64,000 nt of DNA from an uncultured Collinsella sp. (GCA_937896835.1 CALBOJ010000075.1:5903-69902), one strand, 5' to 3'; positions 3,291-27,280 are shown, counted from the stretch's first letter. Made by a program: numbers and translations. The notes: generated by a model not told the origin, from the sequence alone.

Positions 3291-3304
3291 CGAGGGGAGG
3301 GTGT

Positions 3305-3847: not shown

Positions 3848-3864
3848 CGAACGAAAGGACCCCT

Positions 3865-4500: not shown

Positions 4501-4631
4501 CGTGGGTGTGGCGACGCAGGTCGCCGACATAATTGCTCCATGCGAAAGGGGCGGGGATGCATGTGCATGTATTGCATTCCCGCCCCCTGTTTGTTGAGCT
4601 GCCGATTTTTGTGCTGGGCGGTCTGGTCTTG

Positions 4632-5315: not shown

Positions 5316-5354
5316 GGGCGGTCCTAACGCGCGAGTCGGTTTGTTCGCGGCTTA

Positions 5355-6605: not shown

Positions 6606-6729
6606 ACCGATTGTAAGCCTCCTGAGAGATCCGCGACGTGGGCGTGGCAGTATTTACCGTTCGCAGGCCGAGCCAGCGCGTTTGCCGTCCGAGCGGGTTC
6701 ACAAGCGACGCAGCGGGTACGTACCCTTC

Positions 6730-11123: not shown

Positions 11124-11133
11124 GGGGGGGGGG
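11124..11133 (+). repeat. G10 homopolymer at the brxA translation start
   Basis: ttc GGGGGGGGGG tgctc. The last G is the first base of the annotated GTG start. Confidence 0.95.
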
Positions 11134-11783
11134 TGCTCACCCGCGAGCAATTCCTCCCGCATGAGATGCGCATCGTCGCTGCCCTGCGTATACAGGGCGC
11201 AAGCGACGAGCAGGTCATTGTATGCGTAAAGAGCGAGAACCTCTTTCAATATCCCACGGAGCGCATGGTCGCCAACCGCGCAACCGTGTGCCTTCGCCGC
11301 CTCGACGCCATGGTGCCCACGGACGCCGCATGCGCCGCGCGCGGCATCGACCCCAATACCGCCGTCGAGGCCGCGTCATCCCTAACCAGCCTTATGGCAT
11401 CTGGCACTCCCACGCAGGCGGACCAGGCCATCTTCTACAGCATGATCTGCCGCTACGACATCGTGCGCGAGCTCGTGCTCGTCGAGGTAGGGGAGCGCCT
11501 GCAAAACTTTGATTATGCCTTTACGGCGGTTGACCTCAACGCCTTTATGACGCGCTTTACCACGGAGTATCCGGACGCCGCCCGCTGGACCGAGTCCACG
11601 GTCACGCGCATCAAAGGCTCGCTGCGCCAGACGCTCCGCCATGCCGGTCTTATCGGCGAGGGTCAGGGCCCGGAGTCCGAGCGCCTGTCACCACTCTTCC
11701 TCGATTCCGATGTCGAGCGAGCCTTGATTCAGCTGGGTGAGCAGTCGCTTATCGCGGCCCTTACCGGCAGGGCGGTGATGTAG
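11133..11783 (+). CDS. brxA: BREX protein BrxA (DUF1819-like)
   Basis: About 216 aa and first gene of the canonical six-gene order. Size and position fit BrxA. The start is uncertain (see the poly-G finding). Confidence 0.75.
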   Translation: MLTREQFLPHEMRIVAALRIQGASDEQVIVCVKSENLFQYPTERMVANRATVCLRRLDAMVPTDAACAARGIDPNTAVEAASSLTSLMASGTPTQADQAIFYSMICRYDIVRELVLVEVGERLQNFDYAFTAVDLNAFMTRFTTEYPDAARWTESTVTRIKGSLRQTLRHAGLIGEGQGPESERLSPLFLDSDVERALIQLGEQSLIAALTGRAVM

Positions 11784-11784
11784 C

Positions 11785-12477
11785 GTGGCTCCCGTCAACA
11801 GCGCCATCGACCCTGCTATCACCCCGGCGACGGACATCACCACCAATATCGGCATCCATTCCCGCCAGAGCGTCGTGGCGGCGCATGCCCGCTCCGAGCG
11901 CGCCCGCCAAGAATTTGAGCGCCGCGCGCAGCTCCTGCGTGAGTGCCTGTGCAGCGAGGACTTTTTGGCCAACAAGGGCATAGGTAACGAGATCGGCTTC
12001 CATACCTTCTGCTACGACCCTGCGCTGGAGTTTGAGGCGCGCGCGTTGTTTGACACCCTTTCACGCGATGCCGAGGCCGGCAAGCTCCCGTGCACGCTCA
12101 AGGTCGTAAACCTCTACGACGCCGTGCTGGCGATCCTCGAAAAGCGCCGTGTCCTCAAGGCCATTCCGCGCCAAGAGGAGCGCCGCGGCACCCAGCGTGT
12201 GCTTGAGGACGTGGCCAAGTTTTGTTCGCCCGAGAAGATCGCCGCGTTCATCCTCGAGCAAACCGAACCTCATGCACCTGGCGACGTCATTCTTCTGACC
12301 GGTGCCGGCGAGGTCTATCCCTTTTTTCGTATTCACACCCTTCTCGACTGCATGCAAGTCGATTTTTCCGACCTGCCGGTGATCGCCGCCTATCCAGGCA
12401 GCTTCAACGGCTCTTCTTTCCAGCTCTTTAACCGTCTGCCGGCCGATAACTACTACCGCGCCATCGATATCTCGTAA
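11785..12477 (+). CDS. brxB: BREX protein BrxB (DUF1788-like)
   Basis: The GTG start lies 1 nt after the brxA stop. The region IGNEIGFHTFCYDP ... GAGEVYPFFRIHTLL is typical of DUF1788. An alternative GTG start is at 11875. Confidence 0.8.
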   Translation: MAPVNSAIDPAITPATDITTNIGIHSRQSVVAAHARSERARQEFERRAQLLRECLCSEDFLANKGIGNEIGFHTFCYDPALEFEARALFDTLSRDAEAGKLPCTLKVVNLYDAVLAILEKRRVLKAIPRQEERRGTQRVLEDVAKFCSPEKIAAFILEQTEPHAPGDVILLTGAGEVYPFFRIHTLLDCMQVDFSDLPVIAAYPGSFNGSSFQLFNRLPADNYYRAIDIS

Positions 12478-12555
12478 GCACGGCTCCCCGCAGGCAAGTC
12501 CCTGTCGCCGGTAACAACCCTTTGCCATAACGTTCCCAAACCCAAAGGAGCACCC

Positions 12556-15500
12556 ATGGACAACACGATCATTCGCGACCTCTTTGCAAAAGACATCAAC
12601 CGCTCCATCAACGGCGTGGTCAAGGTCCAGGATTCAAAAGATGGGTCCATCCGCCAGGAGCTTGACGAGTACGTGGTGACGCGCGAGTTGCAGAGGCACT
12701 TTGCCACGTTCTTCAAGGCCTACGGCGATGCCATCGATGCACGCACCGACAAGATCGGCGTGTGGATCAGTGGTTTCTTCGGTTCCGGTAAATCGCACTT
12801 CCTCAAGATGCTGAGCTACCTGCTCGAGAATCGCCAGATCGGCGGCAAGAGCGCCATCCGCTACTTTGACGGCAAAATCGTCGACCCCATGGTCGCGGCT
12901 GCCATGGAGCGCGCCTGCTCGGTGCCCACGCAGGCCATCCTCTTTAACATCGATAGCAAGGCGGGCCAGTGGAAGCAGGGCGATACGGCTCCCACGGCGC
13001 TGCTTCGCGGCTTTGAGCGCATGTTCTACGAGGCGCGCAGCTTCTACGGCGAGGACCTCAAGCTTGCAAAGCTCGAGGACTACATCGATTCCCTGGGCAA
13101 GACCCAGGAGTTCCGCGAGGCCTTTGAGCGCGTCAACGGCGAGTCCTGGCTCCAGGCCCGCGACACCTACAGCTACTTTGAGGACGACGTCGTCGAGGTG
13201 CTGCAGAGCGTGCTCGGCATGAGCGAAAAGGCCGCATGGAACTGGCTCGAGGGTTCTGAGGACGAGGTTTTGGCCCCCGATGTCTTTGCCAAAAAGGTCA
13301 AGGATTACGTGGACGCTCAGGCAGCGGCCCACGGTGGCAACTTCCGTTTGCTCTTTATGGTCGATGAGGTGGGTCAGTTTATTACAAACGACCAGGACCC
13401 AAGCCTTATGCTGAGCCTTCAGACCATCGTCGAGGAGCTGGGTGCCGCCTGCGGTGGCCGCGTGTGGGTGATGGTCACGAGCCAGGAGGCCATCGACAAC
13501 CTGAGCCTGCCCGTGGGCAACGACTTTTCAAAGATCCAAGGCCGCTTCAATACCCGCCTTTCGCTCTCCAGCTCCAGCGTGGACGAGGTCATCCAACGCC
13601 GTGTGCTCGAGAAGACCGCGCCGGCGGCCGATATGCTTGCACAGGTCTACGAGCAAGACGCCGCCGTTCTCAAAAACAACTTTACCTTTGAGGGGGGCTC
13701 GCGCTCCGACCTTGCCGGCTTCGCCAACTCCAAGGATTTTGTGGCCAGCTACCCGTTTGTGGGCTACCAGTTTAAGCTTCTGCCCGACGTGATGACCGAG
13801 GTACGCAAGCATGGTGTTAAGGCCAAGCATATGTCCACGGGCGAGCGCTCCATGCTGAGCGCGTTTCAGGAGAGCGCTCAGGCCATCCAGCATGACCAGA
13901 CCGGTGCGCTCGTGCCGTTCTGGCGCTTCTTCGACACTATCTCCAAAGATCTTGAGCACGGCATCAGCCAGGTGGTTGACCGCGCGGTCCGTGCGGCCGA
14001 GAACGCGGAGGGCCTTGAACCCTACGACGTCCAGGTGCTCAAGCTCCTGTACTCGATCCGCTACATCGGCTACGTCAAGGCCACGGTCGAGAACATCTCC
14101 ATCCTTATGATCGATAGCCTGGACGTGGACAAGCGCGCCCTTAAGGACCGCGTCAAGGAATCTCTCGCCCGCTTGGAGCGCGAGAGCTACGTGGCACGCC
14201 AGGGCGATACCTATAGCTTCCTCACCGACAAGGAGCAGGAGATAGCGCAGGAGATCGCACGCACCCCGATCGATAACGCGAAGGTGATTGAGTACATCAA
14301 GAAGCGCCTGTTCGAAAGCATCTACACTGCGCGCAAACTCAACCGCGGGACCAACGACTTCCCCTTTGACCGCTACGTGGATGGCTCGATTCATGGATCC
14401 AACATGGGCGGCATGGAACTATCCGTGGTGACCATGGCCAGCAATCTGGGCCGTGCGGACGATGCCGAGCTGGCATTGAAATCCGTGGATAAGGCCATCG
14501 TGGCCTTGAGCGACGAGGTGGATTATTGGGCCCCACTCGTCAACGCCGCTAAGATTCGCATGTACGCCCAGACGCGCAACCTGCAGGAGCTACCGCCGAG
14601 TACCCGCCAGATCGTCGAGGCCAAAATGCGCGAGAAGGACTTTAACGAGAAAGAGGCTGACGCCCTTTTGGCTGAGGCGGTGCTCCATGCACGATGCGCC
14701 GTCAACGGGCGCATGATTGAGATCCGTGCTGCCAAACCCGCCCAGGTCTTTGAGCAGGTGCTGGCGCAGCTGTGCGATGTGGTCTTTGAAAAGGCCGGCT
14801 ATATCGGCGCGCCGGTCACGAGCGATTCCGATATCCGCTCCACTCTGGCGGGCAACGTTCAAGCGGGGCTCGCTGGCATGAACGCGGGTAACACGCGTGC
14901 GCTCAAGGAGGTTGAGGACTACCTCAAAGTGCAGCACCAGCGCCATCTGGATACCGCTATGGGCGATATCCAGCGCCAGTACCAGCAAAGGCCCTTTGGC
15001 TGGCGCGAGGTCGACATCGCAAATGTGGTGGCGCAGCTTGTGGTGGAGCAGCGCGCGCAGGTGCTGTTTGGCGGCCAGACGGTTCAAGCTAACGATAGCC
15101 GCATGGTGGCGCTCCTGCGCAAGGATGCCGATAAGGCCCAGGTGCGCTTGCGCGTGCGCATGAGCGACCGGTTGCTGCGCGCCACGGGCGAGCTCATGCG
15201 TGATCTGTTTGATCTCAAGACCGTGCCCTCCAACGAGGATAAGCTCGTGGCCGAGCTCAAAGAGCGCCTTGAGGGCTTGCGCGAGGCGTGCCTCGCCATG
15301 GCACGCGACTACTACACGGGCATCAAGCCGGCCTACCCGTATCCCGGTGAGGACGAGTGCGAGAAGATGCGCTCGGAGGTGGCCGACGTCCTTAAGGACC
15401 AGAACGAGGCCGAGGCGTTCTTGACCACGTTCACCAAGCATGAGGAGCGTTTGCTCGATGCCAAGGAAGACTTTGATAAGGTGGTTGAGTTCTTCGAGTC

Positions 15501-16218
15501 CAACCAGCGAACAGCGTTTGACCACGCCAAGGATTTCTTGAGCCGCACCGAGGGTATCGAGTATGCCTCCGATGACATTCCCAGCGCGGTTGAGAATGTG
15601 GCAAAGGTGCGTGAGGTTCTCAAAGATCCCAAGCCCTACGGCCGCATTAAAGACCTGCAGCCGCTTATGGATCCCGTCGAGGACGACATGAAAAAGCTGC
15701 TGGGCATCCGCCGCAATGAGTTTTTGTGCCGAATCGAGAGCGATCTGCAAGACCTGCAGGCACAGGCTGAGAGTCAAAAGGGCTTTGTCAATCAAGCCAA
15801 GGATGCCATAGCAGACGCCGGCGCCAAATACGAGTCGTTCAAAAACCGTGCCCACAGTGCTCAAAGCCTCAACGAGCTGAGTGTTGCCGCGACTAACTGG
15901 GCCAACTGGCTCAGCGCAGCAACCAACGGGATGTACGACGTTGTGGATGCGGCCCGCATGCGTATGGACAACGAGCGCCGCACCACCGAGGTCACGAGTA
16001 CGGGTGAGGTGGTCAAGAAGATCTCCAACAAGGCCGTTGCGTCGTCAGCGCCCACGCCTGCACCCGTGCCCCAGCGCAAGATCAAGACTGTGCGCCGCGC
16101 CGATCTGGCCAAGCCGAGTCGTCTCTTGTCCGCAGGGGACGTGGAGCGCTACGTGGACGACCTGCGCTCCCGCCTTATGCAGGCGCTCGCTGCAAACGAC
16201 GAGATCCGTATCAACTAA
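12556..16218 (+). CDS. brxC: BREX ATPase BrxC (P-loop, about 1220 aa)
   Basis: Walker A GFFGSGKSHFLK near residue 75. Size and position match BrxC/PglY-type ATPases. Confidence 0.9.
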   Translation: MDNTIIRDLFAKDINRSINGVVKVQDSKDGSIRQELDEYVVTRELQRHFATFFKAYGDAIDARTDKIGVWISGFFGSGKSHFLKMLSYLLENRQIGGKSAIRYFDGKIVDPMVAAAMERACSVPTQAILFNIDSKAGQWKQGDTAPTALLRGFERMFYEARSFYGEDLKLAKLEDYIDSLGKTQEFREAFERVNGESWLQARDTYSYFEDDVVEVLQSVLGMSEKAAWNWLEGSEDEVLAPDVFAKKVKDYVDAQAAAHGGNFRLLFMVDEVGQFITNDQDPSLMLSLQTIVEELGAACGGRVWVMVTSQEAIDNLSLPVGNDFSKIQGRFNTRLSLSSSSVDEVIQRRVLEKTAPAADMLAQVYEQDAAVLKNNFTFEGGSRSDLAGFANSKDFVASYPFVGYQFKLLPDVMTEVRKHGVKAKHMSTGERSMLSAFQESAQAIQHDQTGALVPFWRFFDTISKDLEHGISQVVDRAVRAAENAEGLEPYDVQVLKLLYSIRYIGYVKATVENISILMIDSLDVDKRALKDRVKESLARLERESYVARQGDTYSFLTDKEQEIAQEIARTPIDNAKVIEYIKKRLFESIYTARKLNRGTNDFPFDRYVDGSIHGSNMGGMELSVVTMASNLGRADDAELALKSVDKAIVALSDEVDYWAPLVNAAKIRMYAQTRNLQELPPSTRQIVEAKMREKDFNEKEADALLAEAVLHARCAVNGRMIEIRAAKPAQVFEQVLAQLCDVVFEKAGYIGAPVTSDSDIRSTLAGNVQAGLAGMNAGNTRALKEVEDYLKVQHQRHLDTAMGDIQRQYQQRPFGWREVDIANVVAQLVVEQRAQVLFGGQTVQANDSRMVALLRKDADKAQVRLRVRMSDRLLRATGELMRDLFDLKTVPSNEDKLVAELKERLEGLREACLAMARDYYTGIKPAYPYPGEDECEKMRSEVADVLKDQNEAEAFLTTFTKHEERLLDAKEDFDKVVEFFESNQRTAFDHAKDFLSRTEGIEYASDDIPSAVENVAKVREVLKDPKPYGRIKDLQPLMDPVEDDMKKLLGIRRNEFLCRIESDLQDLQAQAESQKGFVNQAKDAIADAGAKYESFKNRAHSAQSLNELSVAATNWANWLSAATNGMYDVVDAARMRMDNERRTTEVTSTGEVVKKISNKAVASSAPTPAPVPQRKIKTVRRADLAKPSRLLSAGDVERYVDDLRSRLMQALAANDEIRIN

Positions 16219-16284
16219 CCCGCGGAGCCACCGGTGCCAAAGCGCGCACCGGTGGCTTATGGCGTTTAGAAAGGCTCATCAACC

Positions 16285-18801
16285 ATGAACGATTCTGCTC
16301 TTAAGAGCTTCTGCACCTGGGCCCGTACGGAGCTCATCAAAGGCGTGGAGGCGCAGATGGTGCGCTACGGCATCACCGAACCTGCACCCGCGCCCGTTGG
16401 GTCCGAGACCGTTAGCGGCCTGCCCCTAAGTCCGGCTGAGATTGAGCAACGCGACGAACTGCTGCGCATGCAGGCAGAGGTGGGTCACGAGGTGCTGCGC
16501 GACCGTGCGGCCTACACCTGGTTCAACCGCATCGTGGCCATTCGCTTTATGGATGCACGCGGATGGCTTCCCAGCCGCATGCGCATACTAAGTCGTGCGG
16601 ACGGCAGCCATGGTAGCGAGGCCGTGGAGAACGCACTGGACGTGGAGATAGCGACGGCCGATGCCGATCGCATAGCCGAGCTCAAGATGGCGGGCTTGGA
16701 TGAACCGCTGTGGCGCTACCTGTTTGTTGCTCAGTGCGAGGAGCTTGCCGATTGCCTACCGGGCGTCTTTGAACGCGTGGGCGGAGCCATGGAGCTGCTG
16801 TTGCCCCAGGGCCTCATGATGTCCGACGGCGTGGTGGGCAAGCTCAATGCCGTCCTCACTGACGAGGACTGGCGCAAGGGCGTGACCGTTCTGGGCTGGA
16901 TGTATCAGTACTACAACGCTGACGTTAAAGACGAGTTCTTCAAGTCCAAGCGCAAGGCAGCGGCGGCGGACATCGCGCCCGCCACGCAGCTCTTCACCCC
17001 CGAGTGGATCGTGCGTTACATGGTCGAGAACTCGCTCGGCCGTCTGTGGATGCTCAATAACCCGGGGAGTTCGCTGCGCGAGCGCATGGAATATTACATC
17101 GAGCCCGATGCTGAGCACGAGGACTTCATACGCATCTCGAGCCCCGAGGAGATAACCCTCTGTGACCCCGCATGCGGCTCGGGCCATATCCTGGTCTATG
17201 CGTTCGAATTGCTCTTCCATATGTACGAGGAGCGCGGCTATCGTGAGCGCGAAATTCCCGAGCTCATTCTTACTAAAAACCTCGCTGGCATGGAGATCGA
17301 TCCCCGTGCAGCGCAGATCGCGGAACTGGCGCTTGCCATGTGCGCCCGCGAGCACGATCGTCGCTTTTTCAAGCGCGCCGTGCGCGCCGACGTTACCGCG
17401 CTCTCGAGCATCCCGCTGGGAGAGGACGAGCTCCCGGGCAACAAGAAGCTCGCCGAGGAGCTGAGCCATTTGGGCGAGATCGGTTCGCTGCTCAATCCTT
17501 CAGAGGACGAGATCGACGAGCTCAAGGCTGCCGTCGCGAGTTGTTCCGATGACCTTTTTGCCGCTACGGCCAAAACTAAGCTCGAAAGCGCTGCCGCCAT
17601 CTGCGAGAAGCTGTCCCGTCGTTTTACCTGCACCGTTGCGAATCCTCCGTATATGGGCAGCAGCAGCTTTAATCCATTCATGAGCAAGTGGGTCAAGAGA
17701 AATTATCCCGACGTGAAGAGTGACCTGTTCTCTTCGTTCATCGTGCGCATTATGGACTTTGCTGGCGAGCACGGCGAAGTCGGAATGATGACTCCATTTG
17801 TTTGGATGTTTATCGGTAGCTACGAGAAGCTTCGAAATAGGCTTATCGATGACAAGACCCTAACCACGCTCATTCAGCTCGAGTATTCTGGCTTTGCAGG
17901 GGCAACCGTGCCCATCTGCACGTTTACCTATCACAATTCGCATATCGATGGTTATAAAGGCGGATACGTTCGTCTTGCCGATTTTACTGGCCCCGCGGTT
18001 CAGGCTCCCAAGGCGCTGGAGGCCATCCAAAACCCCGACTGTGGCTGGTTCTACCGCCGCAACGCCGACACCTTCAAACAAATCCCCGGCACCCCCATAG
18101 CCTACTGGGCCAGCGATGCTCTTGTTGAATCGTTCACAAAAGGAAAGAGGCTCGATGCCATTGCTACTCCGCGACAGGGCTTGGCAACGAGCGATAATGG
18201 CCGCTTTTTGAGGAAATGGTGGGAAGTGGTGCCTTCCAACACATCGCGAGATTGCAGTGGCAGGCCCGAGGCAAAGCAAAGTGGTTCCCGTTGGTTTCCG
18301 ATTATTCGGGGCGGCTCCTATCGAAAGTGGTGGGGTGACTACGATGAGGTGGTTAATTGGTTTGATGACGGTCGGGAGATGAAGGAAGCAATTCTGTCCA
18401 AGTATACCTATCTCTCTACACCTGATTTTGTGATCAAGAACCAGAACGACTATTTCAAGCCCGCAGTTTCCTGGTCTAAAATTTCTTCCAGCCTCGCCTC
18501 CTTTAGGTTTGCACCTCGAGGGATGCTTTTTGAGGTAGCTGGAGCATGTCTTTTTGCGGAGCCGAATGAGCTTCGATACATCCAGGCTTTCTGCAACTGT
18601 TCCATTGCCGAAATTGATTTGGCGTTTATGTCGCCGACTCTAAACTTTGAGGTAGGCCAAATCGGTCAGTTACCGATCATCCAAGATAAGGCCGCCGAAC
18701 CGACTGTTTGTTCACTCGTTGAAGACTCTCGCTCAATTTCAAAGGCTGACTATGACTCGTTTGAAACTTCTTGGGATTTCAAGCGTCATCCTTTAATTTA
18801 G
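16285..18801 (+). CDS. pglX: BREX adenine methyltransferase PglX, N-terminal fragment (N-domain, MTase and TRD; 838 aa)
   Basis: SAM motif I CDPACGSGHIL and catalytic motif IV NPPYMG. Ends ...SWDFKRHPLI followed by TAG. Confidence 0.9.
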   Translation: MNDSALKSFCTWARTELIKGVEAQMVRYGITEPAPAPVGSETVSGLPLSPAEIEQRDELLRMQAEVGHEVLRDRAAYTWFNRIVAIRFMDARGWLPSRMRILSRADGSHGSEAVENALDVEIATADADRIAELKMAGLDEPLWRYLFVAQCEELADCLPGVFERVGGAMELLLPQGLMMSDGVVGKLNAVLTDEDWRKGVTVLGWMYQYYNADVKDEFFKSKRKAAAADIAPATQLFTPEWIVRYMVENSLGRLWMLNNPGSSLRERMEYYIEPDAEHEDFIRISSPEEITLCDPACGSGHILVYAFELLFHMYEERGYREREIPELILTKNLAGMEIDPRAAQIAELALAMCAREHDRRFFKRAVRADVTALSSIPLGEDELPGNKKLAEELSHLGEIGSLLNPSEDEIDELKAAVASCSDDLFAATAKTKLESAAAICEKLSRRFTCTVANPPYMGSSSFNPFMSKWVKRNYPDVKSDLFSSFIVRIMDFAGEHGEVGMMTPFVWMFIGSYEKLRNRLIDDKTLTTLIQLEYSGFAGATVPICTFTYHNSHIDGYKGGYVRLADFTGPAVQAPKALEAIQNPDCGWFYRRNADTFKQIPGTPIAYWASDALVESFTKGKRLDAIATPRQGLATSDNGRFLRKWWEVVPSNTSRDCSGRPEAKQSGSRWFPIIRGGSYRKWWGDYDEVVNWFDDGREMKEAILSKYTYLSTPDFVIKNQNDYFKPAVSWSKISSSLASFRFAPRGMLFEVAGACLFAEPNELRYIQAFCNCSIAEIDLAFMSPTLNFEVGQIGQLPIIQDKAAEPTVCSLVEDSRSISKADYDSFETSWDFKRHPLI

Positions 18802-18869
18802 CTGTCTTGTTAGGACTCACCTATCTTTAACAAAAGAACGTCATTGGATAGATTGGATTGAAATTAAAT

Positions 18870-19016
18870 ATGTCTGAAAAAAAGAAAGATGACAAGAAAA
18901 GAAAAGATGAAGGGGCGGGAGCAAAGAAGCCGGTCACGATTCCTGGACCCATAACAAGGTTAACGCAATTTACTTATGAAAAACCGGCGGGTTTACCTGA
19001 TCGAAAAACCAAGTAG
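18870..19016 (+). CDS. Small Lys-rich ORF (48 aa) inside the pglX insertion
   Basis: Hand translation gives MSEKKKDDKKRKDEGAGAKKPVTIPGPITRLTQFTYEKPAGLPDRKTK. The SD is weak. The stop lies 15 nt before the next ATG. Confidence 0.35.
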   Translation: MSEKKKDDKKRKDEGAGAKKPVTIPGPITRLTQFTYEKPAGLPDRKTK

Positions 19017-19030
19017 TAAAGGTGACTTTC

Positions 19031-19621
19031 ATGGGCAAAAAGAACAAGCGACATGACGTCGATAAAAGCGCTCTCTCCAAGGAGGGGCAGATTAGCGATT
19101 ACTTGAGAGACATTATTCTTTCCTCACTTGAATTTGAAAAAGAGAGGGGGGATAGCTTAAATCGCTACGTTGATAACCTCATGGTTACCATCACGATTCT
19201 GTCCGTTGCGTACCTGGCACCTCTCGACTATATTTCAAATATTCAAGGTCTTGAGGAAGTTTATGGGATTTCAACGAGGCAAATACTGTTTGTCTATTTG
19301 ATTCTTCTTGGTCTTCTTGGCTGTGCTCTTGTTATAGCTGTCAGTGCAATATTTTTAAGGAGCAATATTGCACTCGCATCTCCTTCTGAACAATTTGATA
19401 GGTATTCGACTACTTACAAAGAGGCTTGCGACGAGGGCGGGCAAATTAGGGAACGGGACTTGCTTAAGTCCTACTGCTCTTCCCTAAACATTACCTATCG
19501 GGCTTACCTTTTGAAACATAACAACATGTGGAAGCGATTGAAAATATCAACTGGCCTGACTGTCCTGTCATTAATCATGGCATTCGTTTTTCTGTCCCAT
19601 CTTTTATTGACTTTATTGTAG
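19031..19621 (+). CDS. Three-TM membrane protein (196 aa) inside the pglX insertion, family unknown
   Basis: ATG at 19031 with AAGG 8 nt upstream. Hydrophobic segments are NLMVTITILSVAYLAPL, ILFVYLILLGLLGCALVIAVSAIFL and GLTVLSLIMAFVFLSHLLLTLL. Codon usage is very AT-rich. Confidence 0.6.
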   Translation: MGKKNKRHDVDKSALSKEGQISDYLRDIILSSLEFEKERGDSLNRYVDNLMVTITILSVAYLAPLDYISNIQGLEEVYGISTRQILFVYLILLGLLGCALVIAVSAIFLRSNIALASPSEQFDRYSTTYKEACDEGGQIRERDLLKSYCSSLNITYRAYLLKHNNMWKRLKISTGLTVLSLIMAFVFLSHLLLTLL

Positions 19622-19797
19622 TTGTCGTCTCTCACTTATGGGATTTATTGATAGCCAGACTTGTCCTGAAGATATCGGTCGAGCATCGGAAGGCTTTCGC
19701 TGTTTTTCAGCTCACGAGTCTTGGTGTTTATTGATTGATGGAATGGGCTCGGGTTTTCCAACTTCTACTGTATTGATAAATTGAAAGGTCTGTAGTT

Positions 19798-20766
19798 ATG
19801 GCCACTTTACTTCAAGATAAATACGAGGCCCGCAAGGCTGAGGTCAACGAGCGGTTTGAGCAGCTTCGCGCTAACGAGGAAGAGCTCAACCGAATCTTTG
19901 CCAAGATCTACAACATGGAGGGCGAAGTGCCCATCGAGGTCGAGGATAAGTACGTTTCGGTGGCGCGCATCTTCGATACCGCCGACGAGATTCCCGAGAG
20001 CTATAAGGGCAACAAATACGTGCGTACCAAGCGCGACGAGATCAGCTCGCTCATAAGCTATGCCGTGGGCTGTATGTTTGGCCGCTATTCGCTGGATGTG
20101 GACGGGCTGGTCCTGGCCGATCAGGGCGCCACGGTCGACGACTATCTGGCAAAGATGCCCAACCCTGACCACGTGACCTTTATGCCCGATGGCGACAACG
20201 TGTTGCCCATTACCGATGACGAGTACTTTGACGACGACATCGTGCGCTATTTTATTGACTTTGTGCGTACCGTGTACGGCGAGGAGACGCTCGAGCAGAA
20301 CCTGGCCTTTATTGCCGAGGTGCTCGGCGGCAAGGGCACCTCGCGTGAGGTCATCCGCACCTACTTTTTGAAGGACTTCTTTAAGGACCACTGTCAGACC
20401 TACAAGAAGCGCCCTATCTACTGGCTGTTCGACAGCGGCAAAAAGAACGGCTTCAAGTGCCTTGTTTACATGCATCGCTATCAGCCCGACCTGTTGGCTC
20501 GCATCCGCACCGACTATGTGCATGAGCAGCAGGAGCGTTACCGTGCCCAGATCGGCTATGCCAACGATGCCCTTGCCAGTGCCGAGCGCGGCGAGCGCGT
20601 GCGCTTGGATAAGCGCGTGAAAAAGCTCAATGACCAGCTCAAAGAGACCATTGGCTACGAGGAGAAGCTGCACCACTTGGCAGACCAGATGATTAAGATC
20701 GACCTGGATGATGGCGTTAAGGTCAACTACGCCAAGTTTCAGGATGTGCTGGCAAAGATTAAGTAA
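19798..20766 (+). CDS. pglX: PglX C-terminal fragment (322 aa)
   Basis: Contains RFEQLRANEEELNRIF, typical of the PglX/type IIG C-terminal region. It has its own ATG with GAAAGG 9 nt upstream, and an in-frame stop at 19777. Same reading frame as the N fragment. Confidence 0.85.
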   Translation: MATLLQDKYEARKAEVNERFEQLRANEEELNRIFAKIYNMEGEVPIEVEDKYVSVARIFDTADEIPESYKGNKYVRTKRDEISSLISYAVGCMFGRYSLDVDGLVLADQGATVDDYLAKMPNPDHVTFMPDGDNVLPITDDEYFDDDIVRYFIDFVRTVYGEETLEQNLAFIAEVLGGKGTSREVIRTYFLKDFFKDHCQTYKKRPIYWLFDSGKKNGFKCLVYMHRYQPDLLARIRTDYVHEQQERYRAQIGYANDALASAERGERVRLDKRVKKLNDQLKETIGYEEKLHHLADQMIKIDLDDGVKVNYAKFQDVLAKIK

Positions 20767-20789
20767 CTGCAAATACGGTAAGGATATTC

Positions 20790-23498
20790 ATGCCCAAGAT
20801 CGATGTAGAAGAACAGCTCAAGCTGCGTTTTTTGCAGCCGTTGTCCCCATGCGCGCCGCGCCGTGTTGTGGTTTGGCACGATGCGGACGGTGAGTTTGCT
20901 CCTGAGTTTGAGCGATTGGCCGCCGAGGGTTTCGACGGCGCGGGGGCCGATGATGGCGTTATGCCCGCCCACGGTGACTTTGAGCGCCCGGTGCGGTTTG
21001 TTGAAGCCTGCGAGGGCCGCATGTTTGCCGTTAAGAAGCTCATCAACCGCGATGACCTTGCGAACGATATCTTGTTGTATCGCCGTTGCCCGCGCGGCAG
21101 GCTTGAGGGTGATTGGCTTGCCGATGTTGAGCTGTATGCCGATCAGTTCCAGGCTGACTATCTTTCGCTTTTGGCCGATCAGCTGGGTATCGAGAATGTC
21201 GACGCCGTGCGTGAGAGTCTGCGCGAGCACAAGACGTTCTTTGATGCCAAGACCCGCTGCGCTAAGTTTGCCGCGTGTGTTCCGCATGCCGCGGGCGTAT
21301 CCGATATCGAGCTTGGAATCCTTACGGTGATCTTTGGCGGCAAGGAGCCGGGCGACGCGCGGCCCGCGTTTGTGCTGCGCGGCTGCATGGCCACACTGCT
21401 GCACGAGGGCCCCGAGGCGCTGGCTGCGCTGGTGGATAAGTACAGCTTGCGCGACGTCCTCTCTGCCTTTATGCTGCGCTGCTATGGGTTTGATGGGCCG
21501 CTGTACGAGCGCGACTCACTGCTTATGCTTGCATCCCATGTGCTCCTTACGGCGGCATCCACCGCGCTTCCCGAGGGGGCGCTCAAGGGACTCGAAAGCT
21601 ATGTGGCTCCCGCCTACGGCCCCTATTGTCTTGAGGCGGTGCGTACGTGGGACCAGGCCGCCGATGCCCAGGCATCGAGCGAGGACCTATTTGAGATCTG
21701 CCGTTTGGTAGAGGATGCCCGTGGACTCTTTGCGCGGTTCGAGACCCTGCCAATCGATGCGTTGGTCTCGCTTGACGTGTTCCCGTGCGTCAACGAGGCT
21801 GTGCTCTCACAGTTGTTCAGCTCGTTTGCTCAGGGCGCGGACCGTGTTGAGAGTGCGCGCGCATTTGCTGCGCGCCGTTGCGACCTAAGCTGGTACCGTC
21901 GTGTTGAGAGCTACTTTGACCTACTTGCTGCCGTGGCCGATATGTGCTCTTTTAGGCAGACACACGCGGGTGGGTTCCATCTGGCGCAACCCCAGCAGGT
22001 GTGGGATGCCTACACGTCCGATTGGTATGCCATGGACGCTGCCTATCGCCACATGTGCACCGCGTATCTGCGGGTGCGCTCCGTCGAGTGCGATGCGCTC
22101 GAGGAACCTGCCCGCGCTGTGGCGGACTGGGCGGAGAATCTCTACAGTAACTGGTTCTTGGCGGATGCCAATGCCTGCTGGGCGGTCGCTGCGCAAGGGG
22201 AGTGGGCCGATTGCGGCTACATCGATGGCCCTGCACGGCAGGATGAGTTCTACTGGCATGTGCTGCCCACCTTTGTGGGCTCTGCCAAGACGACGGTCGT
22301 TATCGTAAGCGACGCGCTGCGCTATGAGGTGGCCCGTGATGTCGCGGCGCTTCTCGAGCGCGAGCGCGGCGGCAACGTCAGGGTTTCTAGCATGCAGGCG
22401 GTCTTTCCCTCCATCACCGAGGTGGGCATGCCCGCGCTGCTGCCGCACCAAGCGCTTGAACTTGCAGCGGATGGCTCGCTTGTGTTGGCTGACGGCATGC
22501 CCACCGCAACGACTCCGCAGCGCGAGGCCGTGCTTGCCCACGTTGAGTCTACGGCCCGCGCTTTGCGCTCGAGCGCATACCTCAACATGGCGGGAACCGA
22601 GCGCAAGGCGCTGCTCAAGGACTCCAAGCTCGTTTATCTCTACCACAACAAGATCGATGCTACGGGCGAGAAGGCCGCTACGCAGGATGACATCTTCGAT
22701 GCCTGTGCGGACACCGTGGAGGAACTTGCTGCGTTGGCGCGTCGCGTGTGCACCGACGCCCCGGGCGCGCGTGTTGTTATAACGGCGGACCACGGCTTTA
22801 TCTACACGCGTCGGGAGCTCAGCGAGTGCCAGATGCTCGGCAAGCCGGACCTTCCCGTCCTTGACGCTCCCGTCATGTACGGCAAACGTCATCTGGTGGC
22901 GCCCAACGAGGCCGTGGGCGAGCTTTCGTACGAGGTGCGTGGGGTGTTTGTTAATGTTAACATGGGACGTTTGGGTGCCGGTTTTGAGGGGTTTGCCCCG
23001 CGCGAGAACGTGCACTTCAAGCGTCCCGGCGGCACTAACAACTACGTCCACGGCGGCATGAGCCTGCAGGAGCTCTGCGTGCCCGTTATCGGTTTTTGGC
23101 GTGCGCGCTCGGGTTCCAAGGACTTTGTCGACACGCGCGCGGCGACGCTGCGCGTGCTAAGCGAGGGACGCCGAGTGACCAACTCGCTCTTCTCGGTCAA
23201 CTTGATCCAGGAAGAGCCTGCCCAAGGTAAGGTCTTGCCGTGCGAGTACGAGCTGGTGTTTACCGATGCAAGTGGCAACGAGGTGAGCGATACGGTCAAG
23301 GCGCATGCCAACAAGACTTCTGTTAACTCGCAGGAGCGCGTGGTGCATGCCAAGTTTGCGTTGCATGCAGCGGATGGATTCTCGGCCAAGGGTCCGTACT
23401 ATCTGGTCTGCCGCGAGCGCGAGACGGGCAAGATTGTTTGGCGCGAGACGTACACCATCGCTGTTTCGTTTGCCCCTGTTGCTGACTTTGGTTTTTAG
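20790..23498 (+). CDS. pglZ: BREX alkaline-phosphatase-superfamily protein PglZ
   Basis: 902 aa. The N-terminal RRVVVWHDADGEF and the central ITADHGF metal-site-like motif fit PglZ. Position after pglX. Confidence 0.9.
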   Translation: MPKIDVEEQLKLRFLQPLSPCAPRRVVVWHDADGEFAPEFERLAAEGFDGAGADDGVMPAHGDFERPVRFVEACEGRMFAVKKLINRDDLANDILLYRRCPRGRLEGDWLADVELYADQFQADYLSLLADQLGIENVDAVRESLREHKTFFDAKTRCAKFAACVPHAAGVSDIELGILTVIFGGKEPGDARPAFVLRGCMATLLHEGPEALAALVDKYSLRDVLSAFMLRCYGFDGPLYERDSLLMLASHVLLTAASTALPEGALKGLESYVAPAYGPYCLEAVRTWDQAADAQASSEDLFEICRLVEDARGLFARFETLPIDALVSLDVFPCVNEAVLSQLFSSFAQGADRVESARAFAARRCDLSWYRRVESYFDLLAAVADMCSFRQTHAGGFHLAQPQQVWDAYTSDWYAMDAAYRHMCTAYLRVRSVECDALEEPARAVADWAENLYSNWFLADANACWAVAAQGEWADCGYIDGPARQDEFYWHVLPTFVGSAKTTVVIVSDALRYEVARDVAALLERERGGNVRVSSMQAVFPSITEVGMPALLPHQALELAADGSLVLADGMPTATTPQREAVLAHVESTARALRSSAYLNMAGTERKALLKDSKLVYLYHNKIDATGEKAATQDDIFDACADTVEELAALARRVCTDAPGARVVITADHGFIYTRRELSECQMLGKPDLPVLDAPVMYGKRHLVAPNEAVGELSYEVRGVFVNVNMGRLGAGFEGFAPRENVHFKRPGGTNNYVHGGMSLQELCVPVIGFWRARSGSKDFVDTRAATLRVLSEGRRVTNSLFSVNLIQEEPAQGKVLPCEYELVFTDASGNEVSDTVKAHANKTSVNSQERVVHAKFALHAADGFSAKGPYYLVCRERETGKIVWRETYTIAVSFAPVADFGF

Positions 23499-23509
23499 GA
23501 GTGTGCCCT

Positions 23510-25849
23510 ATGTTTGATAGCCATGATGACGATCTGTGGGAAGTTCCCTCGATTGATGTGAATGTGCCGGTGGAGACTGTGCCCGCGGTGGAGGCTGTGC
23601 CCGCTGAGGCCGTGGCGCCCGACGAGGAGGCTGCGCCCGCCGATGCCGTGGCGCCCACCGATGACGAGCTTTCGACCGATGACTATGCCCAAACCGTGGC
23701 CGACGCTCCCGAGGACGACGGTTACGACATGGATGGACTGGACGGCAAGCTGCTCGAGCACTTTGGTGGCAAAATCGTGCGCAAGGACCTGACGGCCCTT
23801 ATGAAGCGCGGCGCCAACGTGCCCACCTTTGTGCTGGAGTACCTGCTGGGCATGTACTGCTCAACCGACGACGAGGATGCCGTGGCGGAGGGCCTGGAGC
23901 GCATCCGCAAGATTCTCACCGATAACTATGTGCGCCCCGACGAGTCCGAGCGCATTAAGTCCAAGATTCGCGAGCTGGGTCGCTTTACCATCATCGATAA
24001 GGTGACGGCCAAGCTCGACGAATACAAAGACATCTACGTGGCGTCGTTTGCCAATCTGACCATTGAGCCGTTTGTGATGCCGGCCGAGTACGTGCGCGAC
24101 TATTCCAAGATTCTGCAGGGCGGTATTTGGTGCATCATGAGCATCGAGTATCGTCATCCCATGGAAGAGGAAGACGAGTTTGGCATGGAGGTCTTTGGCG
24201 ATGATGCGCCGCGCCGCTCCAAGGCCAAGCGCAAAAAGCGCGGACCCGAGGACTCTCCGTTTAGCGTGGCGTCGCTCACGCCCATTCAGATGCCCAACCT
24301 GGACCTGGATGCCATGATCGACGAGCGCCAGTATTTCTCGCGCGACGAGTGGCTCAACATGCTGTTGCGCTCTGCCGGCTATGAGCCCAGCGAGCTTTCG
24401 GAGAAGGAGCGCCTGCATTTTATCGAGCGTATGGTGCCGCTGATCGAGCGCAACTACAATCTGTGCGAGCTTGGTCCCCGTGGCACCGGCAAGAGCCATA
24501 TCTACAAAGAGGTTTCGCCCTACGCCATTTTGCTTTCGGGCGGGCAGACCACCACGGCCAACCTGTTCGGCCGCATGAACTCCATGCGCGCCGATCGCGT
24601 GGGCTTGGTGGGTCACTGGGATTGCGTGACGTTCGACGAGGTCGCCGGCATGCGCTTTAAGGACACCAATGCCGTGCAGATCATGAAGGACTATATGGCG
24701 AGTGGCAGCTATGCGCGTGGCCGCGACCAGATCAATGCCGATGCCTCCATGGTCTTTGAGGGCAACATCAACGACACCGTGCAAAATGTCCTTAAGACCA
24801 CGCACCTGTTTGATCCGTTCCCGCCGGAGTTTAACAACGATTCGGCCTTCTTCGACCGTATCCACTATTACCTGCCGGGTTGGGAGATTCCCAAGATGCG
24901 CTCGAGCCTGCTGACCGGGCATTATGGCCTGATCACCGACTGCCTGTCGGAGTTTTGCAAAGAGATGCGCCGCAAGGACTTTACGCACCATATCGACCGT
25001 TACTTCCGCTTTAACAGCGACTTCAACAAGCGCGACGAAATCGCCGTGCGCAAGACCTTTAGCGGCCTCGCCAAGCTGCTGTTCCCCGACGAGGCCATGG
25101 ACAAGGATGACGTGCGCTGGCTGCTGGACTACGCCATCGAGGGCCGTCGCCGCGTAAAGGAGCAGCTCAAGATTATGGCGGGCGTCGAGTTTATCGACGT
25201 CAACCTGGGCTATATGGATGCCGACAATCCGCAGGACGTGCACGTGGTGCGCGTGCCGGAGCAGTCCGAGGATACGTTGATTCCCGATGGCCCGCTGCTG
25301 TCCGGTCACGTGTTTGGCGTGGGTAGGTCGCAGGGCGGCGAGGTTGCCGTGTACAAGCTGGAGAACAAGGCTGTCGCCGGCGAGTGCAAGTTTAAGCACG
25401 AGGGCGTTGCCTTTAACAAGCCGGTGCGCGATACGCTGGAGGCCGCGTTCGACAACTTTGTGAACCTGGCGAACCGTGTGGCGCCGGGCATGCACATTGG
25501 CTCAAAGGACTACCTGCTGTTCTATAACGACCTGCAGAGCAAGGGTCTGTCCGAAGAAGTCTCGCTTGCCGAGTTTGTGGGCCTGTGCTCCGCGGCGTGC
25601 AACCGCCCGGTAATGTCCGCGCTGGCGGTTCCGGGAATCTTGCGCATGTCGGGCTCTATGGACGAGATTCGCGGGCTCGAGGACATTATGCGCGTGGCCA
25701 AAAACGCCGGCGCCAAGCGCGTGATATTGCCGCTGAGCGCCATCGCGGGCCTGCAGAGCGTTTCCTCCGAGATTATCTCGGGGTTGAGCCCGGCGTTCTA
25801 CATGGATGGCGACCCGGTCGATGCCGCGAAGAAGGCGTTGGATCTGTAG
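23510..25849 (+). CDS. brxL: BREX Lon-like protease/ATPase BrxL
   Basis: Walker A ELGPRGTGKSH and a C-terminal Lon-protease-like region. ATG at 23510, 8 nt after AGGAG. Acidic Pro/Ala-rich N-terminal extension. Confidence 0.9.
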   Translation: MFDSHDDDLWEVPSIDVNVPVETVPAVEAVPAEAVAPDEEAAPADAVAPTDDELSTDDYAQTVADAPEDDGYDMDGLDGKLLEHFGGKIVRKDLTALMKRGANVPTFVLEYLLGMYCSTDDEDAVAEGLERIRKILTDNYVRPDESERIKSKIRELGRFTIIDKVTAKLDEYKDIYVASFANLTIEPFVMPAEYVRDYSKILQGGIWCIMSIEYRHPMEEEDEFGMEVFGDDAPRRSKAKRKKRGPEDSPFSVASLTPIQMPNLDLDAMIDERQYFSRDEWLNMLLRSAGYEPSELSEKERLHFIERMVPLIERNYNLCELGPRGTGKSHIYKEVSPYAILLSGGQTTTANLFGRMNSMRADRVGLVGHWDCVTFDEVAGMRFKDTNAVQIMKDYMASGSYARGRDQINADASMVFEGNINDTVQNVLKTTHLFDPFPPEFNNDSAFFDRIHYYLPGWEIPKMRSSLLTGHYGLITDCLSEFCKEMRRKDFTHHIDRYFRFNSDFNKRDEIAVRKTFSGLAKLLFPDEAMDKDDVRWLLDYAIEGRRRVKEQLKIMAGVEFIDVNLGYMDADNPQDVHVVRVPEQSEDTLIPDGPLLSGHVFGVGRSQGGEVAVYKLENKAVAGECKFKHEGVAFNKPVRDTLEAAFDNFVNLANRVAPGMHIGSKDYLLFYNDLQSKGLSEEVSLAEFVGLCSAACNRPVMSALAVPGILRMSGSMDEIRGLEDIMRVAKNAGAKRVILPLSAIAGLQSVSSEIISGLSPAFYMDGDPVDAAKKALDL

Positions 25850-25927: not shown

Positions 25928-27280
25928 ATGGCGGACGAGCGTTCTGTTGGTGAGCTGCTCGACGAGCTGTTTGGCTTTGAGTCGGTGGCCAAGCGTCAGA
26001 CGGCGCTTGAGCAGTACAATCGCGGGGAGCTGGTGCGCAAGGCGCGCTCCCGCGAGCTGCTGGGCGTGATCGAGGGCGTTGAGACTGCCGAGCGCGCTGC
26101 ACGCGAGTCTGCCGTGCAGGCCGTCGACAGATATGTACGCCGCGTTGAGGCCGAGTCGCTTGCGCGCGCTCGCAGGCAGGTGGGCGTTGTTGGTCCGTTG
26201 CAGATGGAGCGGCGCTACGCTGCCTTTTTGCGCATGGAGGACAAGGCCGAGCTGTTGGCCCGCTTGGAGCAGACGCTTGCGTTTATCGAGGTAAAGTTGC
26301 GTGCCAATACGGCGGACAGGGTTCGTGCGGCATACGATGCTGCGGGGGCTTTGGTGTTGCAGGGCGCGGCGCGTCTGAGTGACGTGCGCGTTGTGGATGC
26401 CGCACCCTTGGATGCCGATCTGCTATGCACGCAGCTGGAGCAGCTGCGTTGCGCCGCCGATACAACGGACCTTGCCGGCATGATCACAGCGACGTTTGAG
26501 TCCGAGCTGAGTGCGACCGGCCCGCAGGGTGCTGACGCGTTTGCGAGTGATTTGGCTGGCGATGTGGCGCTGGAGTGCGAGCTTACTAATGTGCGCGGCG
26601 CTGCGCAGCGAGCGCGCTTGGCAGCCCAAGCGTATCGGGCCGAACGCGCTGCCCGCGTTGCAGGGAGCACGGTGGAGCCGGTATCGTTGCCGGGGCTTGT
26701 TTGCATTACGTGCGAGACGGGGTGCGATGCCGGGGAGCTTGCCGAGTTGCTCGCTCAGGTTAAGAAGTCGTTTGAGGCCTATAGGCGCGTTGTTACCGAC
26801 GGCGGGTTGTTCTGTGCCTTTGGTGCCGGTTCGCCGCATGGGATTTGCCGCGGCAGTAGCTATTTCGACTACGATGATCGGTTTGACGAAGACGTGTTGG
26901 TGGGCGAGTATGACGGTGCTACCAGGCACAATGTTCGGCGCGAAGTTGCGATTCCCGAGCTTGTGGACGAGGCTTCGGCCGACGGCGGCAACTCGCTCGA
27001 GGTTGCCGTGGCGCGCATGCGTGAGTTTAACGGACGGCGCTACGATGGTGTGCTGGACGAGGATCCCGCGCGCCATGTGAATGCGTTTTGGTATGGACTC
27101 AAAAAGCTCAGCCAGTATTGCGAGGCCGCCGTGCGTGTGGACGAGCGTGCTTGGGATTGCTTTATCGATAAGGTGCAGTTTGCCTACGACGAGCCCGTGG
27201 GGCGTTTGGCCACACAGATGGATGACAAGCAGGTTGCGGCTTTTGTTGCCGCCGTGAATGTGCTCGGCGCTGCCGAGTAG
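25928..27280 (+). CDS. Hypothetical protein (450 aa): Ala/Arg/Glu-rich helical N-half, Cys-containing C-half
   Basis: ATG with GAGGAGG 7 nt upstream, 79 nt after the brxL stop. High-GC codon usage like the host. Cys cluster CITCETGC. No family recognised. Confidence 0.6.
   Translation: MADERSVGELLDELFGFESVAKRQTALEQYNRGELVRKARSRELLGVIEGVETAERAARESAVQAVDRYVRRVEAESLARARRQVGVVGPLQMERRYAAFLRMEDKAELLARLEQTLAFIEVKLRANTADRVRAAYDAAGALVLQGAARLSDVRVVDAAPLDADLLCTQLEQLRCAADTTDLAGMITATFESELSATGPQGADAFASDLAGDVALECELTNVRGAAQRARLAAQAYRAERAARVAGSTVEPVSLPGLVCITCETGCDAGELAELLAQVKKSFEAYRRVVTDGGLFCAFGAGSPHGICRGSSYFDYDDRFDEDVLVGEYDGATRHNVRREVAIPELVDEASADGGNSLEVAVARMREFNGRRYDGVLDEDPARHVNAFWYGLKKLSQYCEAAVRVDERAWDCFIDKVQFAYDEPVGRLATQMDDKQVAAFVAAVNVLGAAE

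Follow-up and report, generated by a model that had tools for sequence, protein, structure and literature searches.

A split pglX in Collinsella type 1 BREX loci: a probable two-gene methyltransferase with an exchangeable cargo bay at a fixed cut

PglX (BrxX), the methyltransferase of type 1 bacteriophage exclusion (BREX) systems, is known as a single chain from E. coli HS (9EWZ) and Salmonella (8C45, 8Q56), and is encoded in operons with the gene order brxA-brxB-brxC-pglX-pglZ-brxL. A different arrangement has been described in the BREX-1 locus of Brevibacterium casei (NZ_CP068173.1), where one coding sequence (CDS) provides the PglX N-terminus with a variable middle and a downstream CDS provides the constant C-terminus (PMC9881135). 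Milman et al. (NAR 2023) read this split as functional, the cut coming at the end of the variable region, and interpreted inversions as varying the middle of PglX while its ends stay constant (PMC9881135). Genes of the HEPN families pEK499_p136 and RloC are in some cases found inside Pgl operons, alongside PglX, PglY, PglZ and a Lon-type ATPase (Anantharaman 2013, PMC3710099). A recent survey (NAR 2026) found auxiliary nucleases (Shedu-type, HEPN, OLD and others) beside or inside BREX loci and proposed them as backup effectors (PMC12839542), and BrxU in pEFER is a BREX-embedded accessory effector (PMC8565348). Here we describe a type 1 BREX locus in a 64,000-nucleotide stretch of DNA from an uncultured Collinsella sp. 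of the C. aerofaciens complex (GCA_937896835.1 CALBOJ010000075.1:5903-69902; the whole stretch is called the window below). It has the same operon order as single-chain systems and the same PglX domains, namely an N-terminal domain (NTD), a methyltransferase domain with NPPY, a target recognition domain (TRD) and a C-terminal domain (CTD), at 34% identity. Unlike single-chain PglX, it is encoded by two open reading frames (ORFs), cut between the equivalents of BrxX residues 870 and ~872, with 1 kb of DNA and one or two genes between them. We document the anatomy of this split, its conservation, the selection on it, a diversity of cargo that includes bona fide defense genes, and the recombination tracts that cross it. 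The locus probably represents a conserved two-gene type 1 BREX methyltransferase with a fixed cut and an exchangeable cargo bay, a design favored by selection rather than a gene that has been broken.

The type 1 BREX is complete and lies on the + strand (11133-25849) in the order brxA, brxB, brxC, pglX-N, cargo, pglX-C, pglZ, brxL. All six core genes have Pfam matches and canonical order, with pglX as two ORFs:

11133..11783, + strand: brxA (Pfam BrxA PF08849, 6e-32)
11785..12477, + strand: brxB (Pfam BrxB PF08747, 1.6e-32)
12556..16218, + strand: brxC, 1220 aa (Pfam PF25796, PF25792 and PF25791, BrxC domains)
16285..18801, + strand: pglX-N, 838 aa (PADLOC PDLC02521 positions 1-869, 3e-270; NF033452 positions 1-899, 861 bits)
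19783..19788, + strand: Shine-Dalgarno (SD)-like GAAAGG for pglX-C, 9 nt 5' of the ATG
19798..20766, + strand: pglX-C, 322 aa (PDLC02521 positions 877-1170, 1e-122; BrxX 9EWZ residues 891-1195)
20790..23498, + strand: pglZ, 902 aa (Pfam PglZ PF08665, 3e-44)
23501..25849, + strand: brxL, 782 aa (Pfam BrxL_N and BrxL_ATPase)

The single polypeptide of ~1200 aa that characterizes PglX/BrxX is thus replaced by two ORFs 996 bp apart. pglX-N encodes the N-terminal domain, the methyltransferase domain (with both the S-adenosylmethionine motif I, DPACGSGH, and NPPY), the TRD and the first post-TRD helix, while pglX-C encodes the second post-TRD helix and the remainder of the CTD; the NTD-methyltransferase-TRD-CTD fold is complete in the two together. 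pglX-N ends ...DYDSFETSWDFKRHPLI-TAG (...SWDFKRHPLI-TAG) at 18801. pglX-C starts with an ATG at 19798, upstream of which an in-frame TAA is found at 19777-19779. The gap (18802-19797, 996 bp) has a G+C content (GC) of 39-43% between flanks of ~60%, and the drop is already underway at ~17600, within the TRD-coding part of pglX-N. The original prediction, made by reading the window alone, had described the two ORFs with this N-terminal fragment end, this ATG, the GAAAGG and the in-frame stop, all of which were confirmed in the sequence. Its division of the N-terminal fragment into an N-domain, a methyltransferase domain and a presumed TRD agrees with the matches to PglX models at positions 1-869 and 1-899. 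The exact pglX-N protein is NCBI CUP17014.1, "PglX [Collinsella aerofaciens]", present on 222 contigs. One genome (GCA_024125125.1, locus L009) is 99.96-100% identical to the window over N, gap and C.

The two halves abut. PDLC02521 (1174 positions) is covered at 1-869 by pglX-N and at 877-1170 by pglX-C, and NF033452 (1210 positions) at 1-899 and 906-1209. In an alignment with E. coli BrxX, N residue 838 corresponds to BrxX 870 and C residue 20 to BrxX 891, which places the cut between 870 and ~872. The stretch from the HP[LF] motif to RF is 20 residues long in the concatenated protein vs 19-61 in 49 intact homologs, and in one intact homolog (P0147) it has the same length. The original prediction had held that very little sequence was missing at the junction, and had named a deletion in the alignment of the 838 + 322 aa with intact homologs as the result that would overturn it; no such deletion was found, and profile coverage, BrxX alignment and linker length all indicate that nothing was lost. 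The split is seamless, and the cut lies in a loop of variable length between two post-TRD helices. An AlphaFold2 (AF2) model of N and C fused into one chain, computed with an alignment of intact homologs and therefore speaking to completeness and not to binding between chains, reached a predicted local distance difference test score (pLDDT) of 91.7 and a predicted TM-score (pTM) of 0.81. The model matches Salmonella PglX 8Q56 over the full length (TM 0.90). It contains a helix at 805-823, a coil at 824-842 and a helix at 843-875, so the break between residues 838 and 839 is in the loop. The published BrxX domains are NTD 1-210, methyltransferase domain 211-650, TRD 651-837 and CTD 838-1205 (PMC11842806); with the CTD starting at 838, the cut is therefore ~33 residues inside it. 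The region after the TRD has been described as a double-helical spacer resembling the coiled coil of HsdS (PMC12839542), and the cut probably falls within this spacer. PADLOC also holds partial PglX models (593, 607, 707 and 722 positions long). Two of them, those with 607 and 593 positions, meet near N residues 578-587, which suggests that database fragments cut near the methyltransferase/TRD hinge also exist.

The conservation of the split was examined in GTDB (one genome per species), where 514 genomes encode a pglX-C relative; the best 80 of these, all from Collinsella or unnamed Coriobacteriaceae, were parsed together with the window (81 loci). Enough upstream sequence to read the end of pglX-N is available in 71 loci, and in 71/71 the protein ends at the same residue, ...[DN]SFETSW[DG]F...PL[VIL]-stop (...SFETSWDFKRHPL[VIL]-stop), with TAG in 66 cases, TAA in 3 and TGA in 2. 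The 322-codon pglX-C ORF is intact and begins with ATG in 81/81 loci, and an SD-like core is found <=25 nt 5' of this ATG in 81/81. The gap is present in every locus (664-1311 bp where the N ORF is intact). The search of related genomes that the original prediction had called for thus returned the same break in all 71 loci and, among the loci parsed, no allele lacking the gap, and the interruption does not belong to a single isolate. Its remark that both ORFs share a frame is arithmetically right (3513 = 3 x 1171), but the significance given to it did not hold: in most sister alleles the N and C ORFs are in different frames, and in one otherwise identical locus (L005) the gap is 1 bp shorter. 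The shared frame in the window is therefore a coincidence.

The ratio of nonsynonymous to synonymous substitution rates (dN/dS) is 0.065 for pglX-C and 0.12 for both pglX-N (nt 1-1464) and pglZ, at dS 0.22-0.28 (pairwise Nei-Gojobori estimates, which ignore recombination and phylogeny). By these estimates, purifying selection on pglX-C is at least as strong as on pglZ. An ORF, start signals and constraint kept over such synonymous divergence mean that pglX-C is not a dead remnant. The exact 322-aa protein occurs in 524 blocks of the assembly collection, and in 10/10 such places examined it is preceded by an 838-aa N and by a gene of 196 aa, or of 175 aa in L005. All of the top 120 clusters with homology to pglX-C are exactly 322 aa long and 97-98% identical; the organism names, where given, are Collinsella.

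The DNA in the gap behaves differently from its flanks. The features involved are:

17749..18735, + strand: variable TRD module in pglX-N (ORF nt ~1465-2450, with a conserved island at ~nt 1725-1850; TRD type 1 of 15)
18739..18801, + strand: left anchor, made up of the final ~60 nt of pglX-N with its stop (in every allele, from an alignment of 16 allele types)
18802..19797, + strand: cargo bay, 996 bp, 41% GC (cargo type 5 of 14)

In blastn comparisons between alleles, the alignment stops at nt 1464 or ~1830 of pglX-N and resumes at ~2450; GC in the TRD module of the window is 0.46-0.56. Near the gap only the last ~60 nt of N, ~17 nt before the C ATG (containing the ribosome binding site) and C itself are conserved, and the cargo DNA between these anchors is unrelated from allele type to allele type. 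The original prediction had spoken of a nested cargo in ~1 kb of AT-rich DNA; this DNA is no single insertion but a slot with many alternative contents. Clustering yielded 14 cargo types at the DNA level (all 40-48% GC) and 15 TRD types. Their combinations are reshuffled: TRD type 1 pairs with cargos 3, 4 and 5, cargo 1 with TRDs 2, 3, 6 and 11, and cargo 7 with TRDs 4, 8, 10 and 12. Six of the 80 Collinsella contigs (L021, L029, L033, L037, L066, L072) end 100-800 bp upstream of pglX-C, in the cargo or TRD, as one would expect if metagenome assemblies broke where strains carrying different cassettes co-exist.

The cargo ORF of most alleles begins 0-12 nt from the pglX-N stop. The cargo proteins form at least 12 unrelated families. 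Among them are a full-length Shedu SduA (PADLOC PDLC00398, 1.9e-82; Pfam SduA_C above cutoff) and a RiboL-PSP HEPN protein (PF18735, 53 bits vs a cutoff of 28), and several Collinsella cargos are predicted membrane proteins. The dominant family (166-284 aa) occupies 41/71 loci. Its sole invariant motif is R-N-x-x-A-H, an HEPN-type Rx4H signature. Some of its relatives carry precomputed PF18736 ("HEPN pEK499 p136") labels, and matches in our own scan were sub-threshold. The family therefore probably belongs to HEPN, judging by motif and relatives.

Five loci (L012, L013, L036, L083, L087) have a gap 99.3-100% identical to that of the window next to a C that is only 92-95% identical, and all of them except L087 also have a nearly identical TRD part of N. 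Across ~17400-19800 there are almost no mismatches; their density jumps from 19809-19923 on, 11-125 nt into C, and L036 shows a further rise upstream of ~17400. Recently, therefore, TRD and cargo were transferred together into diverged backgrounds, on a single tract of ~2.4 kb. From the reshuffled pairings of TRD and cargo it follows that crossovers also occur in the 60-nt anchor between the two. This is the pattern of a slot refilled by homologous recombination in conserved flanks. No recombinase, transposase, flanking, terminal or direct repeats, or inverted pglX copies were found in 10500-31500; there was no integrase among the called genes, and no significant inverted repeat in the 21 kb around the locus. 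An Rfam scan of the gap detected no intron or other family, its sole match at E<=1 being a chance microRNA. Promoter and terminator scans of the gap gave no more matches than shuffled controls and none that convinced on the + strand.

The cargo of the window itself (type 5) contains one clear gene and one doubtful one:

18870..19016, + strand: Lys-rich small ORF, 48 aa (52 aa from a TTG at 18858; called as a gene in L009, coding status uncertain)
19031..19621, + strand: cargo gene; predicted membrane protein of 196 aa (AAAGGTG 7 nt 5' of the ATG)

The 48-aa ORF has no family match in Pfam, PADLOC or PHROG. The 196-aa ORF lies on the same strand as the core BREX genes on both sides of it, within the operon, and has three hydrophobic segments (50-68, 84-110, 170-196) predicted to be transmembrane (TM). 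An alternative GTG start at 19022 would give 199 aa. The exact 196-aa protein (CUP16989.1) is on 548 contigs, and an exact look-up of the 199-aa version came back empty because gene callers take the ATG. Homologs among 5.8 billion clusters are only near-identical proteins from the same locus. The protein has no match in Pfam, PADLOC, PHROGs or NCBIfam and no recognizable effector or nuclease domain, and searches of INPHARED phages, PLSDB plasmids and IMG/VR turned up nothing similar. An AF2 model of the cargo alone from a single sequence is all-helical with a pLDDT of 62, too poor for a fold search. Variation among 12 type-5 alleles amounts to 8 sites, of which the 196-aa ORF contains 3 synonymous and 1 nonsynonymous, too few for a selection test. 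We infer that the three-TM protein may be a co-expressed accessory BREX effector of the backup, abortive-infection type.

The same split also occurs outside Collinsella. In L091, L098-L100 and L102 the N protein ends DWD[AS]YETSWDFK..PL[LV]-stop, and in L104 it ends in the variant ...DWDAFETSVDFTRHPLV-stop. The C proteins of these six loci are 295-329 aa long and 60-64% identical to that of the window, the N proteins of L098-L100 and L102 only ~36%, and 1-5 genes lie between N and C. A search of 50%-identity representatives with C returned mostly full-length PglX (1130-1280 aa), the closest intact proteins being 60-68% identical in the C region. C-only proteins with the same start residue were also found: P0133 (329 aa) and P0191 (326 aa). 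P0133 comes from L091 (gut metagenome, 49% GC), where PglX-N has 827 aa and ends DWDAYETSWDFKKHPLL-stop. The gene order there is brxC, PglX-N, an SpbK-like TIR protein (PADLOC PDLC03825, 4e-63), a 118-aa chimeric ORF, Shedu SduA, PglX-C, pglZ, brxL. The 118-aa ORF (6409-6765) is a near-copy of the first ~102 PglX-C residues joined to an N-end-like motif (...AYETSRDFKKYLLI-stop). Lying between the TIR/SpbK-like and Shedu cassettes, it looks like a scar of cassette stacking by flank recombination.

A profile built from the dominant cargo family of Collinsella matched 129 clusters. Of five distant members looked up, four are nested in BREX loci (48-53% GC where measured), with a PglX-N of 835-874 aa on one side and a PglX-C of 295-313 aa on the other. 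The nested middle gene is AT-rich in L098/L099, L100 and L102 (32-38% GC), and in one of the four loci the slot holds three genes, including a DUF1016/YhcG nuclease. The same break with a nested small gene in such distant lineages indicates that the architecture is old and recurrent, and that Collinsella diversified the content of the slot. The fifth member (L106, L107 5607-6176) was found outside BREX, beside an HTH_3 gene in an integrase-rich element; this family with the HEPN-like RNxxAH motif therefore also travels on mobile elements. Stacked cassettes are seen in L098 (3916-6000), where two near-identical 66-aa ORFs start like PglX-C (MGKLISAKY / MGRLTSKKY). Each is preceded by short AACTTGCGAC-like repeats, and a similar run lies upstream of pglX-C in L091 (7800-8000). 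This run, which was not seen in the Collinsella window, may serve as a site of regulation or recombination. Three further contigs carry C-like genes in other settings. In L095 (32% GC contig, 1-5467) a BrxC-like ORF comes first and is followed after 11 nt by a PglX-C-like gene of 326 aa (48% identity), with pglZ next; no pglX-N intervenes between the first two, and either its gene lies elsewhere or the arrangement is different. L096 (3.5-kb contig, 48.5% GC, 52-3234) has a 295-aa PglX-C-like gene and then a 738-aa PglX-N-like gene ending ...GDWDESETSQDFKRSPLL-stop, with the same break points as the window. In P0174 (L097, 2-kb contig) the C start is fused to TelA.

These observations suggest the following mechanism. 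PglX-N and PglX-C would be translated separately from one operon, with N, cargo, C, pglZ and brxL probably co-transcribed. The halves would come together without a covalent bond to form a complete PglX, plausibly by way of the two helices that flank the cut, and the reassembled complex would methylate and defend. The bay, bounded by a fixed stop on one side and a fixed ribosome binding site and ATG on the other, would hold small AT-rich genes, mostly recognizable or candidate anti-phage effectors, and homologous recombination in the flanks would swap these between strains, often along with the neighboring TRD. The original prediction had proposed a functional split PglX expressed as two parts around a nested cargo. 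The comparative evidence supports the separate expression, and the selection on the genes points to a split protein that probably functions in methylation and defense.

Several points weigh against this reading, among them the limit of the fused-chain model noted above. A weak hairpin with a T-run, seen by eye in the gap near 19688-19710, could lower read-through into pglX-C, pglZ and brxL. The cargo of the window has no detectable family, the substitutions in its gap are too few for a selection test, and it is packed more loosely than most, with spacers of 68 nt from the N stop to the small ORF and of 176 nt from the cargo stop to the C ATG. pglX-N is disrupted by a premature stop or frameshift in 3/~67 Collinsella loci (L028, L039, L043). 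In L005 (9235-9762) a 1-bp deletion frameshifts the type-5 cargo, leaving 175/178 aa instead of 196/199, and several cargo ORFs in other alleles are shortened. Many of the genomes are metagenome-assembled genomes (MAGs), and these disruptions of N and cargo are either MAG errors or genuine decay.

The last of these points would be expected had an insertion recently broken pglX, leaving a BREX that is dead or dying, which the original prediction had kept as its alternative. AT-rich, foreign-looking DNA does interrupt the gene, a few loci have additional N disruptions, and NCBI calls C hypothetical, since its 390 bits fall below the NF033452 cutoff of 500. Yet the break is the same in 71/71 Collinsella loci and in lineages with 36% N identity, no residue was lost, the other BREX genes are all intact, and C is under purifying selection (dN/dS 0.065 at dS 0.28) with its ORF and SD-like core kept in 81/81. 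Relaxed selection, sporadic occurrence and an arbitrary break, the hallmarks of a pseudogene, are not what is seen, and recent pseudogenization is very improbable. Hardly more credible is a self-mobile element, whether an insertion sequence, a miniature inverted-repeat transposable element (MITE), a group I or II intron or an intein or split intein, whose removal at the DNA, RNA or protein level would restore single-chain PglX. Such an element would account for the foreign composition, the clean cut and the shared frame in this allele; however, most alleles are out of frame, and neither a transposase or recombinase nor terminal or direct repeats were found. Rfam detected no intron, and the cargo types have no sequence in common that could form a shared RNA structure. 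The abutting N and C lack the extra residues of intein halves, and the stop codon, SD-like core and ATG are all conserved.

Published work offers a precedent for a phase-variable switch, in which the split lets programmed inversions swap the TRD end of PglX-N: the PglX of Brevibacterium casei, for which this was proposed, is split at the end of its variable region (PMC9881135), and TRDs are hypervariable here too. But the 21 kb around the locus contain no inverted partial pglX, inverted repeats or recombinase, and the differences between strains are replacements along homologous recombination tracts, which makes a switch of this kind very unlikely here. It is less far-fetched, though still unlikely, that PglX-N alone is a working methyltransferase and the 322-aa protein an independent BREX component or a helper of the cargo. 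C is more conserved than N, L095 has a C-like gene directly after brxC with no N between, L096 has the order C then N, and the CTD has been described as specific to BREX and as a surface with which other BREX proteins may interact (PMC11842806). In E. coli BrxX, however, the CTD provides the DNA contacts R1145 and K1152, and charge-reversal mutants including the CTD change K1076E/K1077E abolish defense (PMC11842806). Taken together, N and C also recover the full fold, the cut falling in a loop that joins two packed helices, and both genes are always together in complete loci.

A bolder extension of the two-gene design is that the non-covalent assembly of N and C serves as a tripwire or guard. 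The nested gene would be held inactive by the methyltransferase, or stoichiometrically tied to it, and would fire as an abortive-infection effector once a phage anti-BREX factor binds PglX. Ocr is an example of such a factor and binds TRD and CTD. We consider this idea doubtful, if conceivable. If it were true, BREX with a split PglX would form a subtype of its own, equipped with a second line of defense that is built in and swappable, and the 196-aa membrane protein of the window would be a new single-gene abortive-infection effector.

A two-gene methyltransferase with a cargo bay would matter in several respects. The PglX CTD would be able to work as a separate polypeptide, providing a natural two-piece enzyme for dissecting the role of the CTD and its BREX partners. 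A hypervariable slot at a fixed position in an essential defense gene is a compact, searchable catalog of candidate anti-phage effectors; several of the 14 Collinsella cargo types, that of the window included, have no known family. Since TRD and cargo move together on tracts of ~2.4 kb, BREX specificity and backup effector diversify as a unit, and they do so in an abundant human gut commensal. In public annotation PglX-N is named PglX and PglX-C is labeled "hypothetical protein" (NCBI, records P0068/P0109) or "YeeA" (JGI). Of the two, only N passes the cutoff of 500 bits of NF033452 BREX_1_MTaseX (861 bits); C alone fails (390 bits, positions 906-1209), so automated defense finders may report a truncated pglX and incomplete or degraded loci.

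Downstream of the operon, a 450-aa ORF (25928-27280, + strand) lies right after brxL in all Collinsella loci examined and has no match in Pfam, PADLOC or NCBIfam. It was compared with the 460-aa gene that follows brxL in L091 and is unrelated to it. Further on, a DUF3800-like gene of 225 aa (window 27651-28328, - strand) is on the opposite strand in L001/L002 (17854-18531). An inversion was considered and rejected: the proteins are 42% identical and the DNA does not align, which means replacement by a homolog. The segment is ~834 bp long in some strains and 1019 bp in others, and this position is a second replaceable slot beside the BREX locus.

Parts of this picture were known already, namely HEPN genes in Pgl operons (2013), the split PglX of B. 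casei (2023) and BREX-embedded effectors (2026); no description of a fixed intragenic cargo slot was found. In the parts of PMC3710099, PMC9881135 and PMC12839542 that were searched, there was no mention of a fixed slot inside pglX, of a two-subunit PglX across lineages or of a hypervariable slot at the genus level. A literature search on BREX or the methylome in Collinsella found nothing relevant. The B. casei locus resembles that of the window, going by its published description, in having separate CDSs for N plus middle and for C, and both organisms are Actinomycetota. It differs in its programmed inversions, whereas the window has neither inverted repeats nor a recombinase and carries exchangeable cargo in the gap. 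The published embedded effectors are likewise small genes within a BREX operon, flanked by core genes and proposed to have a backup or suicide role, and relatives of the dominant Collinsella cargo family have weak PF18736 pEK499_p136 matches. They lie between core genes, however, while the slot described here is inside pglX, and the cargo of the window has no nuclease domain.

Two systems beyond BREX invite comparison. The anticodon nuclease PrrC is encoded inside the EcoprrI type Ic restriction-modification (R-M) locus, between the hsd genes, and is a suicide effector kept latent by the R-M system and released by a phage anti-restriction factor. As in the split PglX, an effector gene is nested in a modification-dependent defense locus, though PrrC sits between genes and not inside one; the tripwire idea above is modeled on PrrC and EcoprrI, and a physical or regulatory link between cargo and PglX is hypothetical here. 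The half-size or split HsdS subunits of type I R-M systems assemble through coiled-coil spacers. HsdS is a different protein family, and the counterpart we infer would be PglX-N and PglX-C joining by way of the two helices. In both cases, the specificity module is parted at a two-helix spacer, an arrangement that permits modular exchange of TRDs.

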